16,094 nucleotides of DNA, taken from the UHGV virus genome UHGV-0121456; one strand, written 5' to 3'. Origin of the DNA: a virus. A model generated the notes under the pieces. That model was not told the origin of the DNA. It saw only the letters and a list, made by a program, of their open reading frames with translations, and ran no database searches. Of the stretch, positions 751 through 16,094 are shown piece by piece. Made by a program: the position numbers and the translations under genes. Positions within the stretch are counted from its first letter, which is position 1. Each line of letters begins with the position of its first letter.

Positions 751-1497
751 ATGCGACATAATTTTTCTAAAGACACTATAAAAAAATTAGCAGAGCGGGC
801 AGCATTCATTTGTTCAAACCCTTCATGCCCTAGATTGACCATTGGCCCATCAATTGATGGCAATAAATCAATCAAGACAGGAGTTGCTGCTCACATATGT
901 GCAGCATCTCCTGATGGCCCACGCTATGACATGTCACAATCAGAAACAGAAAGGAAGTCAATTAACAATGGCATATGGCTGTGTGCTACTTGTTCTGTAT
1001 TAATAGATAAGAATCAGGGGCTAGACTATCCGGCACCTGTATTAAGAAAATGGAAAAAAGATCATGAAAGCCTTATAAGCTCCTGTCTTGAAGGTTCGAT
1101 TAATATTACCTTCGATGCTTTGAAATATATTCAACAGCATGATGAAAGAAATCTGGCAAAAAAGATTATAAATGAATTGGATGATAAAGGGGCTTTGTTC
1201 GTAGAATATCATCTTGAAAACCCCTGTTTTGTTGCCGAATCACTCAAAGAGTTAAGAACATGTTTGACCTCTTTGCTTTCTCAAATCCCAGATGAATCAC
1301 CTCTATTTATCGTTTGCAAGTCAATTCGAGAAGCATGCCGTTATTATATGAACAACACTTCTAAAGACGCAGGGATTAAAGAGTTAGAATTTTCGTTGGG
1401 AGCTGTCAGAAAAATCGTAGGTATCAACGTTAAAAGAATATCAGAAACCTACGGGGTTAAACCTAGCCCACAATTATCTACCATAATGCCAGATTAA
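751..1497 (+). CDS. Reverse-oriented moron: 248 aa protein with an N-terminal HNH-like (beta-beta-alpha-metal/zinc-ribbon) motif and an uncharacterised C-terminal domain
   Basis: ATG at 751. Motif C-x4-C ... AAHICAASPDGPRY ... NNGIWLCATCS (CxxC followed by Ser where His is expected). Lower GC than the flanks. Opposite strand to Q and the lysis genes. Followed by its own hairpin. Confidence 0.6.
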   Translation: MRHNFSKDTIKKLAERAAFICSNPSCPRLTIGPSIDGNKSIKTGVAAHICAASPDGPRYDMSQSETERKSINNGIWLCATCSVLIDKNQGLDYPAPVLRKWKKDHESLISSCLEGSINITFDALKYIQQHDERNLAKKIINELDDKGALFVEYHLENPCFVAESLKELRTCLTSLLSQIPDESPLFIVCKSIREACRYYMNNTSKDAGIKELEFSLGAVRKIVGINVKRISETYGVKPSPQLSTIMPD

Positions 1498-5606: not shown

Positions 5607-6548
5607 TCACCCCCTGAATCCTGCCGGGATCTGGCTGTAGTCCACGTTGTCGTAACTGGCTTTGAAGTACGGGTCTTCGCGTTTTTCGGTGTACGTGCTG
5701 ACGGACGGCGATAAGCGCAGGGAAAGCTCATCCCATTTTTCCCGCAGCTTCGACGGGCTGAGCACGTTACGGCACCAGAACGGATCGCGGCTGACGCGGC
5801 TGTACATCTCGCAGATTTGTTTGTGAGTACGACCATCCTGCACACACATCAGGCGAATTTCGTTTGCCCAGGCTGTCCAGTTCGGTTCTTTGGGACGAAC
5901 CACCTCGCCGTCACATTCGGCGGCCTGCTCGTACAGGGCGATGATTTTTTTCCAGAGCCACTGTGCGCAGGTCAAATCATCCTGCGTTCCCCACTGGCGC
6001 TTTTTAGGGCTGAATACAACCGCATCAGGATGGCGAGTTAAAAAATCCTGTTCATCCGTCTGCGTGTCCGGTTGCGAAGCGTCCGGACGAGAAGGTTTTT
6101 TATCTGACGGATCATGTTTTGATTTTACTGACGGATCCCCGCCAGATTCTGACGGGTGAAAACCCGCTTTTTTGCCAGATTTCGACGCATCAAATTTTGA
6201 CGGGTCAGATTTTGATGCGTCAGATTTTGACGGGTCAGAATCTGACAGTTGAGAAAATGCCGCTGCCTGAAGCTTCGCAACGTTAAGCTGATAAACATTC
6301 GACGCATTGCGGTTACCCTGGCGACGCGCCTTACGCGTTAACCAGCCTTCTGCTTCCAGCCGTGCGATAGCCGTTCTGACGGTACTCATCCCCGCGCCAA
6401 TCTGACGGGCAATGGTTTCAATTGATGGCCAGCACACACCTTCGTCATTACTGAAATCAGCCAGGCGGGCCATAATTGCCACGCTGGATAATTTCATGCC
6501 TGACGCTGCGCAACCATCCCATACATAGCCGGTTAATTTAGTGCTCAT
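5607..6548 (-). CDS. Replication initiation protein (lambda O-like organiser): N-terminal helix-turn-helix, repeat-encoded linker, C-terminal domain
   Basis: N-terminus [70 protein letters not shown] is a winged-helix replication-initiator type. Internal SDPSKSDASKSDPSKFDASKSG repeats are encoded by DNA iterons. Position is cro-proximal. Confidence 0.7.
   Translation of the reverse strand: MSTKLTGYVWDGCAASGMKLSSVAIMARLADFSNDEGVCWPSIETIARQIGAGMSTVRTAIARLEAEGWLTRKARRQGNRNASNVYQLNVAKLQAAAFSQLSDSDPSKSDASKSDPSKFDASKSGKKAGFHPSESGGDPSVKSKHDPSDKKPSRPDASQPDTQTDEQDFLTRHPDAVVFSPKKRQWGTQDDLTCAQWLWKKIIALYEQAAECDGEVVRPKEPNWTAWANEIRLMCVQDGRTHKQICEMYSRVSRDPFWCRNVLSPSKLREKWDELSLRLSPSVSTYTEKREDPYFKASYDNVDYSQIPAGFRG
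6145..6253. repeat. Iterons (about 15 bp tandem repeats, ATTTTGACGGGTCAG-like): candidate replication origin inside the initiator gene
   Basis: Units at 6194-6208, 6209-6223 and 6224-6238, with degenerate copies at about 6145-6161, 6176-6193 and 6239-6253. A moderately AT-rich stretch lies at 6085-6125. Confidence 0.6.
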
Positions 6549-7688: not shown

Positions 7689-7778
7689 ACAATATGTACC
7701 TCCGGTGTACATATTACATGATTGAAATGAACCTTCAAGATACTTGTACCTTAACGGTACAAGGGTTTTAATTTCGTT
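7689..7778. promoter_or_regulatory. OR-like immunity region: two palindromic operators (7692-7714 ATATGTAC-N7-GTACATAT; 7743-7763 CTTGTACC-N5-GGTACAAG) overlapping divergent promoters
   Basis: Perfect 8 bp inverted repeats sharing TGTAC-N7-GTACA. Candidate pR on the minus strand: -35 TTGAAG (7738..7733), 16 nt spacer, -10 TAATAT (7716..7711). Candidate pRM on the plus strand: -10 TTTAAT (7767-7772) about 7 nt before the cI ATG, which would make cI mRNA leaderless. Confidence 0.55.
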
Positions 7779-8492: not shown

Positions 8493-8536
8493 TTGACAAT
8501 GTACCTTTGAGATACATAATGTACCCAAGCGAAACA
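8493..8536 (+). promoter_or_regulatory. pL-like promoter with overlapping OL-like operator half-sites
   Basis: TTGACA (8493-8498), 16 nt spacer, CATAAT (8515-8520). TGTAC at 8500-8504 with ATACA at 8512-8516 (N7 spacing as in the OR operators), and a second TGTAC at 8520-8524. Confidence 0.5.
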
Positions 8537-11923: not shown

Positions 11924-12543
11924 TGACCACTTTCACCGATAAGGAACTGATTAAAGAAATCAAAGAACGAATCGGCAGCTTAGACGTGCGAGACAATGTT
12001 GAGCGCCGTGCTTATGAAATTGCTCTGGCATCACTGGAAGCAGAGCCGGTGGCGTGGCTTCATTCAGACAATGGCTTAGGTATTCCGGCAATAACCAGGA
12101 GCAAAAACATTGCTGACAGTTGGTTATCAAGGGGCTGGTATGTTCAGCCGCTATATATGGCTCAGCCAGTGTCGGTGGTGCCGGATGCTCTTCCGTCTTT
12201 AAATAATGGCATAGTCGGCTTTGATGAAGGCTGGAACGCCTGCCGCGCCGTCATGCTTCATGGTGCCGAACCTGTAAGCCAGACTTACAAGTTGAACAAG
12301 CTGTCGGGCAACTCTCCGGTAACTCCGGATGGTTGGATAAGCTGTAGTGAGCGAATGCCGAACGATAAACAGTATGTTTGGTGTTGGGGGAAGTCTTACG
12401 GCTGGACTGAGTGCGATACCTTCGAAGGGTATTACGATTGGTCGAGAAACAAATGGTGGGCAATTACTGACGATGGGGAAGAACCGGCATCGAAAGTAAC
12501 CCACTGGATGACGCTACCGGAGCCACCGCAGGAGGTGAAGTAA
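11923..12543 (+). CDS. DUF551 domain protein (YfdT-like region)
   Basis: 206 aa. C-terminus WISCSERMPNDKQYVWCW ... THWMTLPEPP is typical of DUF551. TAATG coupling with neighbours at both ends. Confidence 0.65.
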   Translation: MTTFTDKELIKEIKERIGSLDVRDNVERRAYEIALASLEAEPVAWLHSDNGLGIPAITRSKNIADSWLSRGWYVQPLYMAQPVSVVPDALPSLNNGIVGFDEGWNACRAVMLHGAEPVSQTYKLNKLSGNSPVTPDGWISCSERMPNDKQYVWCWGKSYGWTECDTFEGYYDWSRNKWWAITDDGEEPASKVTHWMTLPEPPQEVK

Positions 12544-12758
12544 TGAACAACTTAATGACAACTAAACAAGTCGCCGACTTCTGTGGCGTTTCAGTATCGA
12601 CCGTTCTTCGCTGGAACAGTGTAAACAGGAGAACTGGCCAGAAATACAGGCCAGACTTTCCAGATCCTGATATTAAATCCTGCCCAAATAAATGGGCATC
12701 ACGTAAGATTTACAAATTTGCCGGAGTTATTGAGGAATGTGAAGCAGCTCAGATATGA
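12543..12758 (+). CDS. Excisionase-like or AlpA-family helix-turn-helix DNA-binding protein (putative recombination directionality factor)
   Basis: 71 aa. MTTKQVADFCGVSVSTVLRW is a helix-turn-helix. GGAGG Shine-Dalgarno. Last gene of the early-left operon, near the integrase. Confidence 0.6.
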   Translation: MNNLMTTKQVADFCGVSVSTVLRWNSVNRRTGQKYRPDFPDPDIKSCPNKWASRKIYKFAGVIEECEAAQI

Positions 12759-12988: not shown

Positions 12989-14215
12989 ATGATTGATAAT
13001 GAAGTTAAAATTTTTGCAAAAGAAAAAGAAAAAATGCTGTGCAACAAACTTTCTTTTTACAGGGAGCATGCTCAATCGAGTGAAGATACAAGAAAAAGAA
13101 ACGAATTTGAACGAGACTATGCGCGTATTCTTTATTCCTCTTCGTTCCGCCGGTTACAGGGGAAAATGCAGCTCTTTGAAGTCGATCCTCAAAAATTTAA
13201 CCGTAATAGACTGACTCATAGCCTAGAAGTTGCCCAGATAGCCCGAAGCATCGCATCCGAACTAGAACTTGAACATCCTGTTGTAGCAGAACTGGCTGCA
13301 CTTGCTCACGATATTGGCAACCCTCCGTTTGGTCATTCCGGTGAAAAAAAGCTAAACGATATTGCTAATGATTTCGGCGGCTACGAAGGCAATGCACAGG
13401 CACTTAGAATACTCAGAAGTCTCGAGATAAAGCATCCAAATTGCCCCGGTCTCAACCTTACCCACCGTGCCATTCTCTCCGTCGTTAAATATCCTTATAA
13501 AAAGGAAAACGGCAGAAAAAAATATCTTTATAATGATGACTATAAATACTACACAGAATTGGTAAATAGATATGAATTAGATTTGCAGACTGGCGAGAAG
13601 ACCATTGATGCACAGATAATGGATCTGTCAGACGAAATTGCATATGCCGCGCATGACCTTGAAGATGCACTAAGCCGTAGCATGGTCAGTATTGAAGATA
13701 TTTTTTATGAGTTTGGGATATCCAAGTACAAAGACTCAATTGATTTATTAAATACAATCATTGAAAAATCTAAATATACAGCTTCGAGAGCATCAAGACT
13801 CAATTCATCTGAAGAGTTCGCCATAATATTCAGAAAGGAATTGACATCCAATATTGTTAATGCGCTTGTTAATGATATTACTGTTATTCAAAGTGAAAAT
13901 GGATTCAAGCAACTTGGATTTAGCACTACAAAAAATCTGTCTGCAGGCCTTAAAGATATCGTATTTAAAGTCATCATGCGAAAAAGAGATATTAAAAGTT
14001 ATGAGCACAAAGGAAACATTATCATCGAAGATTTATTTAATTTTTATAATTATAGAGATAACATAGAATTCATATCCCCTCAACTGTATAGAACGCTCCC
14101 AAATAAAATAGAGCCTATTTATCAAGAACTTAAAAAACGTGCAATTGTCGACTACATCTCTGGAATGATGGATACATTTGCCATCCGCGAGTGGGAAACG
14201 CATCACAAAAAATAA
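12989..14215 (+). CDS. dGTPase-family HD-domain deoxynucleoside triphosphate triphosphohydrolase (Dgt-like); candidate nucleotide-depletion defence gene
   Basis: 408 aa. Motifs RLTHSLEVAQIARSIA, HDIGNPPFGHSGE, YEGNAQALRIL, DLSDEIAYAAHDLEDAL, VDYISGMMDTFAIREW match E. coli Dgt signatures. ATG at 12989 with GAGAGG Shine-Dalgarno. Sits in a strongly AT-rich island between the xis-like gene and the integrase. Confidence 0.85.
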   Translation: MIDNEVKIFAKEKEKMLCNKLSFYREHAQSSEDTRKRNEFERDYARILYSSSFRRLQGKMQLFEVDPQKFNRNRLTHSLEVAQIARSIASELELEHPVVAELAALAHDIGNPPFGHSGEKKLNDIANDFGGYEGNAQALRILRSLEIKHPNCPGLNLTHRAILSVVKYPYKKENGRKKYLYNDDYKYYTELVNRYELDLQTGEKTIDAQIMDLSDEIAYAAHDLEDALSRSMVSIEDIFYEFGISKYKDSIDLLNTIIEKSKYTASRASRLNSSEEFAIIFRKELTSNIVNALVNDITVIQSENGFKQLGFSTTKNLSAGLKDIVFKVIMRKRDIKSYEHKGNIIIEDLFNFYNYRDNIEFISPQLYRTLPNKIEPIYQELKKRAIVDYISGMMDTFAIREWETHHKK

Positions 14216-14586: not shown

Positions 14587-15810
14587 TCAACTGGAATCTG
14601 AACTAGGACAAGTAACGAGCGATTCAACCCTCTCCCACCATACCTGGTAGGCTTTACGCTGTTCTTCTAGATAATCGCTCTTGTCATAAACCTGCCATAC
14701 CCCTGGCAGCTTATGACCAAGCATAATTTCTGCAATATGAGGCGCAGTAAGATCAGAAAAGTTTGTTCGTGCTGTTCGCCTCAAATCATGAAGAGACCAA
14801 TGAGGGAATTGATACCCCAAACGTCGCCATGCGAACTGCATTAAATTGTAAGGCAGCGACTGCAATGATGTCCGACCAACTGGCTCCCTGCTTCCTTCCT
14901 TAGTAAAAAGCATATCGGAACCGTTGTTCATAGAGATAACGTATTTTATAAGCTCTTCAACCGGTTCAATAATGGGCCGCTTTAGTGGTTCGCCTGTTAT
15001 CTCCCCTGTCTTATGTCGTTCTGGCGGTACAGTCCATACCTTATTAATGAAATCAAAATCGTCCACCCTGGCGGTAATTAGCTCTGAACTACGGCAGCCA
15101 AAATGCAGCAATAGTTTAATGAAGGCCCGGTATTTAGGAACCATTCGAGAACCATCGATCGCAGCATAAAGGATTTTAATTTCATCATGTGTCAGAAACC
15201 GTTTCTTCTGACCTTTACGGATATCCATATCTTTACCCGTGATATCCGACAGCGGGCGAGTTTCAATGAGCTTTCTCTTATACGCCCAGACATGGGCCTG
15301 CTTTGCGTTAATTAGTAATCGGTCTGCTATTGCTGGAGCCTTAGTGCTAAGAGGCTCCAGGACTTCTAACCAATCATGCAATGTAGCTGCATCGTGAGGG
15401 ATATTCCCGATTTTAGAGAACAGGTGCAACTCAAACGAGCGGAGTATCTGTTCAGAACCCTTTTTATTTTTTACACAATATGCTTCATACCAGGCACGGA
15501 TCACAGACTCTACCGTCATGGCTTCAGTAGCTTTTCGTTTTTCAGCCTGCTTGACCAATCGTGGATTACGGTTTGACTCGAGTTCACCACGGAGACGGAT
15601 AACTTCTTCTCTGGCCTCTTTTAATCCAGTTGCCGGGTAAGTTCCGATATCAAGACGCTCACCTTTCCCTGCCCATTGATAACGATATTGGAACACTACG
15701 CGACCTTTCGGTGATACTCTGACAGACAGACCATCACGATCGGATTTAACCAAAACCTTATCACGTTCCTTTCCAACGACTGAACGCAACCACGCATCAG
15801 ACAGCGCCAT
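14587..15810 (-). CDS. int: Tyrosine-type site-specific integrase (P4-like, with N-terminal arm-binding DUF4102-like domain)
   Basis: 407 aa. N-terminus MALSDAWLRSVVGKERDKVLVKSDRDGLSVRVSPKG...YRYQWAGKGERLDIGTYP. C-terminal catalytic signatures HDLRRTART and a terminal Tyr region. AGGTGA Shine-Dalgarno before ATG at 15810. Confidence 0.9.
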   Translation of the reverse strand: MALSDAWLRSVVGKERDKVLVKSDRDGLSVRVSPKGRVVFQYRYQWAGKGERLDIGTYPATGLKEAREEVIRLRGELESNRNPRLVKQAEKRKATEAMTVESVIRAWYEAYCVKNKKGSEQILRSFELHLFSKIGNIPHDAATLHDWLEVLEPLSTKAPAIADRLLINAKQAHVWAYKRKLIETRPLSDITGKDMDIRKGQKKRFLTHDEIKILYAAIDGSRMVPKYRAFIKLLLHFGCRSSELITARVDDFDFINKVWTVPPERHKTGEITGEPLKRPIIEPVEELIKYVISMNNGSDMLFTKEGSREPVGRTSLQSLPYNLMQFAWRRLGYQFPHWSLHDLRRTARTNFSDLTAPHIAEIMLGHKLPGVWQVYDKSDYLEEQRKAYQVWWERVESLVTCPSSDSS

Positions 15811-15818
15811 TACTCACC

Positions 15819-15877
15819 TTGTACAAATCGCAAAACACCTCTGCTGCTTTGTACATTATGTACAAGCATATGTACAG
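15819..15877. promoter_or_regulatory. Cluster of four TGTACA hexamers upstream of int (15820-15825, 15850-15855, 15859-15864, 15871-15876), including the palindrome TTGTACAttaTGTACAA
   Basis: Same TGTAC core as the OR/OL operators. Lies in the int promoter and att-proximal arm region, which is AT-rich. Confidence 0.35.
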
Positions 15878-16094
15878 ATTTTTGATGAAAGCAACCTGAT
15901 CGATTTAAAGTTACATGAAAGAATCTTCAATTAAAAAGTCACACAAATATATGTATTTAAATGATTTATATGACCAAAACTCAATTAACTGAAAGGATTT
16001 TGAAAGAGTAAAAGAGCTTTAATTTGGGCTTAATTATTGGGGTGAGAAATAATGGCAAAAGTGCGGCGCTTCGCCACCTCTTGCAAATAAGGAG

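Follow-up and report, generated by a model that had tools for sequence, protein, structure and literature searches.

Repeated TGTACA Hexamers Upstream of the Integrase Gene in a cdtI-Type Escherichia coli Prophage Are Probable Arm-Type Sites for the Integrase

The integrase gene (int) in the stretch of DNA that was analyzed in this work (referred to here as the window; 16,094 nucleotides from the virus genome UHGV-0121456) is preceded by four copies of the hexamer TGTACA. These hexamers are very probably (at a probability of about 0.82) the cores of arm-type sites for the N-terminal domain of the adjacent integrase (Int), and in attP, the phage attachment site, they would make up the P' arm, the one next to int. 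The predicted consensus for the sites is TTGTACATAWT for the local copies and YGTACATA for the integrase family as a whole. The initial annotation of this region had offered two readings of the repeats, viz. operators for CI or Cro, and arm-type or recombination directionality factor (RDF) sites; the arm-type version of the second is the one favored by the presence of the repeats on both attachment arms and on the phage side of the junction, by the arm-binding domain of Int, and by the conservation of the repeats with Int.

Sequence comparisons show that the window comes from a lambdoid prophage of E. coli, of the cdtI/Stx2c/Stx1a phage type, and represents its int end. Its int region is 96–98% identical to those of Stx2c and Stx1a phages, for which the integration site is prfC (PMC10132054), and the inducible phage cdtI has essentially the same att arms and beginning of int. 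In strain 13P477T the prophage sits between yjjG and prfC. Insertion occurs in the 5' end of prfC, where ...FAIISHP is encoded, and both this prophage and phage cdtI supply a replacement 5' end for this gene. The conjugative element SXT, in the work of Hochhut and Waldor from 1999, reportedly also supplies a new prfC 5' end, together with a promoter. The phage arm is carried by 700 of 5426 complete E. coli genomes, and the remainder match the window only from position 16040 on, within prfC. The same base is the exact start of a 14-bp duplication annotated in LC727889, and because the start of the empty-site match coincides with the start of this duplication, the att core (overlap) was placed as indicated in Table 1. 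The comparison with empty sites that had been proposed in the initial annotation thus puts the junction at 16040 in prophage-free E. coli genomes, and the description of the repeats as att-proximal holds, there being 164 bp between the outermost hexamer and the core, with the repeats on the phage side of the latter. The possibility that the repeats are part of the host flank beyond the core was also considered, and they were found to lie 164–220 bp inside the phage.

The four hexamers upstream of int (sites e–h in Table 1) are all within 66 bp of its start codon and one pair of them is palindromic, as had been described earlier. Sites f and g together make up TTGTACATTATGTACAA (positions 15849–15865), which is a perfect 17-bp palindrome. 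Sites e and f are the first and second members of a tandem pair with a spacing of 12 bp; site e is invariant in the related elements from Trabulsiella and Pantoea, and site f includes a −10-like CATAAT. Site g is present in E. coli, Trabulsiella and Pantoea, and in Xenorhabdus an inverted copy is found between two forward sites, whereas the more distant relatives are without it. Site h abuts the Shine–Dalgarno sequence of int. Taken by itself the cluster is only moderately unusual (p of about 0.03): TGTACA is observed 6 times in the 16-kb window vs. 3.1 times expected, and in 10 of 300 first-order Markov simulations of the window some hexamer occurred four times without overlap in a span of 62 bp. 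The repeats are nonetheless considered to be non-random, because four more copies of them are present on the second att arm and because the columns of the sites are invariant across relatives. One further four-copy hexamer cluster is present in the window (6204–6246), and it resembles the iterons of replication origins. Two other regulatory readings of the TGTACA repeats, as LexA boxes or as CII sites (TTGC-N6-TTGC), were rejected on sequence; the sole real LexA box is upstream of a dinI-like gene on the other arm.

The second att arm contains four more TGTACA hexamers within 115 bp, at a distance of 68–180 bp from the core. These sites (a–d) were seen in strain 13P477T, which carries the same prophage, in Stx2c_EH0430, and, in contiguous form, in the circular genome of the inducible phage cdtI, from which the coordinates for attP in Table 1 are derived. 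Seven of the eight sites are flanked by T on both sides, giving TTGTACAT, and the flanks set the orientation of each site. The tandem pairs c/d and e/f have in common a 22-nt module, TGTACATATGMTTGTACATAAT, with the 12-bp spacing, and on the second arm this module lies 16–40 nt upstream of the start codon of the phage-supplied prfC'. The order and spacing of these elements in attP is as follows: site d, 20 nt, the prfC' start codon, 45 nt, the 14-bp core, 164 bp, and then sites e, f, g and h, the ribosome-binding site and int. When a matrix based upon the eight sites was applied to the whole prophage and its flanks (about 64 kb), scores of at least 13 were confined to the two arms, and the CI operators did not score. 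The core, ATTATTTCTCACCC, is without GTACA, and the repeats are unrelated to its sequence. A search for the IHF consensus WATCAANNNNTTR with at most one mismatch gave one weak match in the window, at 15958, and none in the cdtI attP.

Table 1. Positions of the features in the window, their counterparts in the attP of phage cdtI (L256 coordinates, int-sense orientation), and the motif upstream of int in relatives of the integrase. Sites a–h are the predicted arm-type sites; the distances given with a minus sign are from the int ATG.
Feature	Position in window	Strand	Position in cdtI attP	Details
Site a			1292 (reverse)	
Site b			1361 (reverse)	
Site c			1389 (forward)	
Site d			1401 (forward)	
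Phage prfC' ATG			1427	
att core (overlap)	16040..16053		1475-1488	GGGTGAGAAATAAT = ATTATTTCTCACCC in prfC sense; prophage/host prfC junction; 14 bp
Host prfC original 5' end, displaced	16040..16094	-		…PYLQEVAKRRTFAIISHP, then NN-stop in phage DNA; points toward int
TGAAAG repeats (YCTTTCA int-sense)	15886, 15916, 15990, 16001 (region 15886..16006)	+		Between TGTACA cluster and core
Site e	15870..15877	-	1653 (forward)	CTGTACAT on int-sense strand; hexamer 15871-15876; -66; matrix score 16.1
Site f	15858..15865	-	1665 (forward)	TTGTACAT, extended TTGTACATAAT; hexamer 15859-15864; -54; matrix score 20.9, highest of the eight
Site g	15849..15856	+	1674 (reverse)	TTGTACAT on + strand, inverted relative to e and f; hexamer 15850-15855; matrix score 18.8
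Site h	15819..15826	+	1704 (reverse)	TTGTACAA on + strand, inverted; hexamer 15820-15825; -15; matrix score 15.1
int ribosome-binding site	15813..15819	-		AGGTGAG, by direct sequence reading; AGGTG kept in relatives
int	14587..15810	-	1719 (ATG)	Tyrosine integrase; ATG 15810-15808; transcribed away from att core
Small HTH protein	12543..12758	+		71 aa; probable excisionase/RDF; convergent with int
OR operator	7695-7711			Perfect 17-bp dyad
OR operator	7745-7761			Perfect 17-bp dyad
OL operator	8500-8516			Imperfect, 1 mismatch to TGTAC-N7-GTACA
OL operator	8520-8536			Imperfect, 2 mismatches to TGTAC-N7-GTACA
Xenorhabdus				Int 65% identical; prfC; sites at -81, -67, -55, -15
Serratia				Int 61% identical; prfC; sites at -70, -58, -19
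Pseudomonas				Int 52% identical; prfC; GTGTACATAG and GCGTACATAA at -70/-58; inverted GCGTACATAA at -23
Acidovorax				Int 51% identical; prfC; CGTACATA at -71, -59; inverted copy at -21
Metagenomic phage L105				Int 51% identical; prfC; sites at -80, -68; inverted copy at -30
Shewanella				Int 50% identical; prfC; sites at -70, -58, -43, -19
L107				Int 46% identical; sites at -45, -33, one at -277
L189				Int 44% identical; lepA-like gene; sites at -73, -61, -18
Moraxella Mcat15-type phages				Int 41% identical; TGTGTACATAAT pairs at -37/-25 and -270/-258 (about 230 bp apart)

The integrase encoded next to these sites possesses the kind of domain by which they could be recognized. Int contains the Pfam domains Arm-DNA-bind_3 (PF13356/DUF4102; 2e-16, residues 3–90), Phage_int_M and Phage_integrase, and its residues 1–80 are matched by the arm-binding domain whose structure was determined for a CP4-like integrase (3JTZ/3RMP; E value, 1.5e-6). 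The prfC-targeting "SXT cluster" of the IntSXT subgroup groups the integrases of the cdt1-phage and SXT (PMC8138268). [quoted passage not shown]

Evidence that the repeats belong with this integrase comes from their conservation in its relatives. In an alignment of the E. coli, Trabulsiella and Pantoea arms, all 32 of the 32 columns within the sites are invariant, in comparison to 74 of the 207 other columns of the arm (Fisher p = 2e-13). The Int proteins of Trabulsiella and Pantoea stewartii are 84 and 83% identical to that in the window, respectively, both elements are inserted in prfC, and elsewhere their arm is only about 36% invariant. The motif is kept beside relatives of Int of 41–84% identity in at least 12 lineages, a number of which are listed in Table 1; these include metagenomic phages in which Int is 44–51% identical. 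The relatives from Serratia, Pseudomonas, Acidovorax and Shewanella contain a forward pair at about −70/−58 that matches sites e and f, an inverted copy similar to site h is found at −15 to −30 in Xenorhabdus, Serratia, Pseudomonas, Acidovorax and L105, and a copy near −19 is present in Shewanella and L189. The matches obtained in scans of IMG/VR were mostly E. coli copies or prophage predictions that end exactly at the int start; those with a usable upstream region were L101, L105, L107, L189 and L239, and in L178 it consists of 27 nt only, with one TGTACA at −22. As judged from these comparisons, the conserved unit is a directional YGTACATA with the 12-bp tandem spacing, rather than the TGTACA palindrome, and such a unit would fit a monomeric arm-binding domain and not a dimeric repressor. 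Salmonella phage SW-37 (Int 46% identical) has TGTCCA repeats in place of TGTACA, and a beta-strand segment of its N-domain also differs (LWVRISKKG..FF vs. LSVRVSPKG..FQ). Covariation of this kind between the N-domain and the motif is suggestive only, with very few independent changes behind it. Other small variants of the motif were observed in L239 and L010.

The arrangement of sites in attP can be compared with those in several known systems, and it corresponds by sequence to a P4-type layout combined with an integrase of the SXT cluster. Phage P4 resembles the window in having a DUF4102/Arm-DNA-bind_3 N-domain in its Int and in the transcription of int away from the core. In the attP annotated in the P4 record, a tandem pair of 12-mers lies upstream of the core, a further pair comes just ahead of int, and the beginning of int is overlapped by an inverted copy. 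The two attP regions are thus alike in that each arm has a tandem pair with a 12-bp spacing, the pairs being in the same orientation, and in that an inverted copy is located where int begins. The differences are that P4 Int is only about 25% identical, its repeat is (A/T)TGGGGGCATA vs. TTGTACATAAT here, its target is a tRNA-Leu gene instead of prfC, and it has two plus two plus inverted copies in contrast to four sites per arm in the present case. The attP of lambda (P1, P2, P'1–P'3) is likewise that of a heterobivalent integrase, with short directional repeats on both arms that are unrelated to the core, part of which are arranged in tandem roughly one turn of the helix apart; the lambda arm motif is C/AAGTCACTAT. 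However, in lambda int is transcribed toward attP, it is controlled from PI/CII and PL/N and by sib retroregulation, and the arm sites do not lie before the gene. Phage cdtI has essentially the attP described here, with the same eight sites. The SXT/R391 integrative conjugative elements (ICEs) share with the window the target at the 5' end of prfC and the convergent orientation of int and xis (PMC4344509), but SXT is a conjugative element in which int is expressed from the promoter Ps003 upon activation by SetCD (PMC4344509), whereas here a lambdoid phage with CI/Cro immunity is involved. Lastly, the KplE1 (CPS-53)/HK620/Sf6 group resembles the window in being lambdoid/P22-like prophages with early genes of the yfdQ/yfdR type, and in the KplE1 module also int is uncoupled from the RDF gene and faces att, with arm-type sites between the core and the start codon; this gene arrangement is the one described by Panis et al. 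as the KplE1 paradigm. It differs in its integrase lineage, its target (argW) and its motifs, and the KplE1 promoter and its overlap with the site P'1 have been mapped experimentally, whereas here the scan of the int arm identified none.

Among the alternatives to Int arm-type sites, the one that survives best, although we consider it unlikely, is that the TGTACA repeats are sites for the RDF and that the arm sites of Int are elsewhere, e.g., at the TGAAAG repeats. The candidate for the RDF is the 71-aa HTH protein, which shows weak matches to HTH_17, Xis_Gifsy_1 and "excise," and whose RefSeq label in phages cdtI and 2H10 is excisionase. In E. coli phages its gene is found wherever this int is (the protein is 100 and 98% identical in the phages L004 and L005, and SfV is without it), RDF sites are likewise short repeats within att arms, and in KplE1 the sites for TorI lie between the core and intS, where they overlap the intS promoter (PMC2951348). 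Against this, the motif is kept at 41% Int identity in the Moraxella phages, where, as in SW-37, no homolog of the HTH protein was detectable by tblastn (E ≤ 1e-3), and four sites per arm in the arm-repeat layout of P4 constitute an Int arm-site pattern. The persistence of the motif, on both arms, beyond the detectable range of the HTH protein has to be read together with the facts that short RDFs diverge fast and that the KplE1 TorI sites are near intS. RDF sites usually cluster on one arm beside the core, and the TGAAAG family, which is found on the int arm only and closer to the core than TGTACA, fits an RDF or accessory role better in its distribution. Copies 1–3 of this family are conserved islands in Trabulsiella and Pantoea. 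By analogy and from their distribution, the TGAAAG repeats may be where the excisionase or some other accessory factor binds, and they are a better candidate for such sites than TGTACA.

That the repeats are auxiliary operators by which CI or Cro, i.e., the immunity repressor, directly shuts off int appears very improbable. The initial annotation had stated that the core of the repeats is the same as that of the OR/OL half-sites. This is correct insofar as TGTAC is common to both, the operator consensus being TGTACC-N5-GGTACA; however, the literal TGTACA is present in one operator half only (7706–7711). The hexamer starts within the operators are 11 bp apart, whereas the spacings near int are 30, 9, and 12 bp, so that the operator spacing is absent from every pair, and no match to TGTAC-N7-GTACA with at most one mismatch was found near int. 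The pair e/f corresponds to TGTAC-N8-GTACA, one base over the operator length, and an operator-like string with two mismatches spans the int start (15809–15825), but matches at this level are expected 4.5 times per window by chance and neither Trabulsiella nor Pantoea has retained the string in operator form. What is conserved in Pseudomonas and Acidovorax is CGTACATA, a unit that is directional and not palindromic. The mosaic nature of these phages separates the two proteins. Stx2c_EH0430 (Int 98.5% and CI 35% identical) and Stx1a_JNE122398 (Int 96.6%, CI 32%) are both without operators of this type, and both have kept the four repeats near int along with an unrelated CI. SfV, on the other hand, has a near-identical CI (99.6%), an identical Cro (100%) and the operators, together with a different integrase that shows no match to this Int; it has no TGTACA cluster near int or attP and contains only three TGTACA in 37 kb. 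The claim that CI or Cro represses int through the repeats is therefore not supported, given the spacings and the fact that the repeats follow Int and not CI, and the likeness of the repeats to the CI operator half-site appears from these sequences to be coincidental. Because the repeats follow Int, and neither CI nor the excisionase candidate, across the mosaics and relatives, they are assigned to Int. The earlier suggestion that either reading would tie the control of recombination to immunity does not follow if the sites are arm-type.

It is just as hard to credit that the repeats serve chiefly as promoter elements or as sites for host factors, without taking part in recombination, or that the cluster is due to chance: CATAAT is present in sites d and f, the same 22-nt module lies close upstream of the start codon of the phage prfC', where some promoter must exist, and the cluster has by itself a p value that is not extreme, but the consensus scan revealed no promoter on the prfC'/int-sense strand of either arm, the pair in Moraxella and L107 is 18–20 nt from the ATG and hence too near for a normal leader, a host-specific regulator is hard to reconcile with the retention of the motif, along with the integrase, in hosts as far apart as Acidovorax, Moraxella and E. 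coli, and chance is excluded by the second arm and the footprint.

A scan for sigma-70 promoters and terminators found nothing in the int arm (15500–16094), and on the other arm promoter matches were obtained on the opposite strand only. One terminator-like hairpin was observed on the prfC'/int-sense strand of that arm (L003, 1353–1374), upstream of site a. By eye, all of the −35/−10 pairings around TTGCTT, TTGTAC and CATAAT are wrongly spaced or not conserved, and the only promoter-like feature is the −10-like CATAAT inside site f, with site h abutting the ribosome-binding site. The predicted RNA fold of the int leader and arm has a z-score of −3.7 with a terminator-like hairpin absent, and its low energy probably reflects the inverted repeats. 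The entire 229-bp region upstream of int corresponds to the P' arm, and transcription of int could enter from further upstream, from the host prfC promoter in a lysogen or from a P-arm promoter in attP. For IntS of KplE1, experiments have demonstrated negative autoregulation by way of arm sites overlapping the promoter of its gene, and the arrangement in KplE1 leads to such regulation by both IntS and TorI (PMC2951348). In P4, where int is subject to autoregulation involving Int and Vis, the integrase bound at its arm repeats represses int, according to the account of Piazzolla (2006) that is given in PMC2951348. By analogy with these two integrases, occupancy of sites e–h by Int is expected to lower int expression, because transcription of int leads away from the core, with sites e–h at −66 to −8 relative to the ATG of the gene.

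With the repeats taken as arm-type sites, Int monomers occupying them would make the connection to the core sites in prfC, and an intasome for integration would thereby be built; the same sites, together with the small HTH excisionase, would serve in excision; this mechanism is inferred from the integrases of lambda, P4 and KplE1. It is possible, but rather doubtful, that besides being a scaffold for the intasome the arm sites act as a two-way transcriptional gate on int and the reconstituted prfC. Integration would amount to a swap of promoters: in a lysogen, the host prfC promoter and the 21-codon remnant of prfC would then read into int through sites e–h, and the reconstituted prfC would be driven from the phage P arm, with sites c and d just ahead of the new start codon. 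Int bound to the shared 22-nt module would restrain its own synthesis against the housekeeping read-through and tune the level of release factor 3. If such a gate were to exist, a host translation factor would be coupled to the recombination state of the prophage.

Arm-type sites beside a P4-like integrase are what a specialist would expect, and the tempting link between immunity and recombination is removed by this assignment. A literature search revealed no paper in which the arm sites of this integrase or its cluster have been mapped, and the results described here provide a testable attP map for the prfC-targeting integrases of the cdtI, Stx1a, and Stx2c phages. The sequence comparisons also suggest that the wider family of SXT-cluster integrases has one arm-site code, consisting of a directional YGTACATA in tandem pairs 12 bp apart, and this code could help in delimiting the att sites and ends of such elements in genomes and in engineering these integrases.

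Integration of the prophage replaces the prfC promoter together with the first 21 codons of the gene (16040-16094 in the window; 17147-17260 in L174, the far prophage end in strain 13P477T; 1380-1500 in L256, the attP region of phage cdtI), and the new prfC start (MTSLLAAEVAKRRTFAIISHP…) is provided by the P arm of the phage, the attP arm at the far prophage end. The displaced host promoter and a remnant ORF (…ISHPNN-stop) face int, which lies 229 bp downstream, and no terminator was found in this interval between the remnant and int. In the excised phage, a putative promoter in the P arm would read across the core into int. A similar exchange of the prfC 5' end is reportedly made by SXT.

A second repeat family, TGAAAG, is present on the int arm, and it is absent from the other att arm. 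The first three of its copies (YCTTTCA on the int-sense strand) form conserved islands in the relatives from Trabulsiella and Pantoea, and the excisionase is possibly the protein that binds them. The coordinates of these and other features are summarized in the table.

Repeats and genes in the prophage and related sequences
Feature	Position	Strand	Description
CI/Cro operators, OR	7695-7711, 7745-7761		17-bp dyads, TGTACC-N5-GGTACA
CI/Cro operators, OL	8500-8516, 8520-8536		17-bp dyads, TGTACC-N5-GGTACA
GTCAGA/TCTGAC, four copies	6190-6250		inside ORF 5607-6548 (-); 15-bp period
dGTP triphosphohydrolase-family gene	12989-14215		HD plus HD_assoc domains
TGAAAG repeats	15886, 15916, 15990, 16001	+	between TGTACA cluster and att core
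Perfect LexA box, CTGT-N8-ACAG	L174 about 17365-17383; L256 about 1250-1268		upstream of dinI-like gene

The TGTACC-N5-GGTACA dyads are the true CI/Cro operators, the OR pair being located between cro (start about 7688, -) and cI (7779, +) and the OL pair downstream of cI, and the immunity region is of the SfV type. Besides the TGTACA cluster, the sole cluster of four hexamers within 62 bp in the window is that of GTCAGA/TCTGAC, which reads TTTTGACGGGTCAGA TTTTGATGCGTCAGA TTTTGACGGGTCAGA ATCTGAC and looks like a set of origin iterons within a replication-initiator gene.

The dGTP triphosphohydrolase-family gene is found between the excisionase-like gene and int. As an unrelated 2.1-kb ORF occupies its place in phage cdtI, this is a variable cargo position, and the gene that it holds here is possibly an anti-phage gene. 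At the other end, the dinI-like gene with its LexA box is divergent from the P arm, and a defence gene for a TIR-domain reverse transcriptase adjoins them in strain 13P477T.

In Salmonella phage SW-37 (L012, 1690-1990), whose integrase is 46% identical, six TGTCCA/TGGACA repeats replace TGTACA at equivalent positions, and this variant is accompanied by an altered beta-strand in the arm-binding N-terminal domain of Int; this is possibly a natural one-base specificity switch. In a metagenomic relative with 44% Int identity (IMG/VR 3300046525_000097; 1-333), the insertion site is …NIRNFSIIAHI, within the 5' end of a lepA-like GTPase gene. This region is the paralogous counterpart of …RRTFAIISHP, the target in prfC, and the core of this relative, ATTATTGCTCACAT, resembles the prfC-type core ATTATTTCTCACCC. 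This integrase family seems to be directed at conserved G1-motif codons in genes for translational GTPases.
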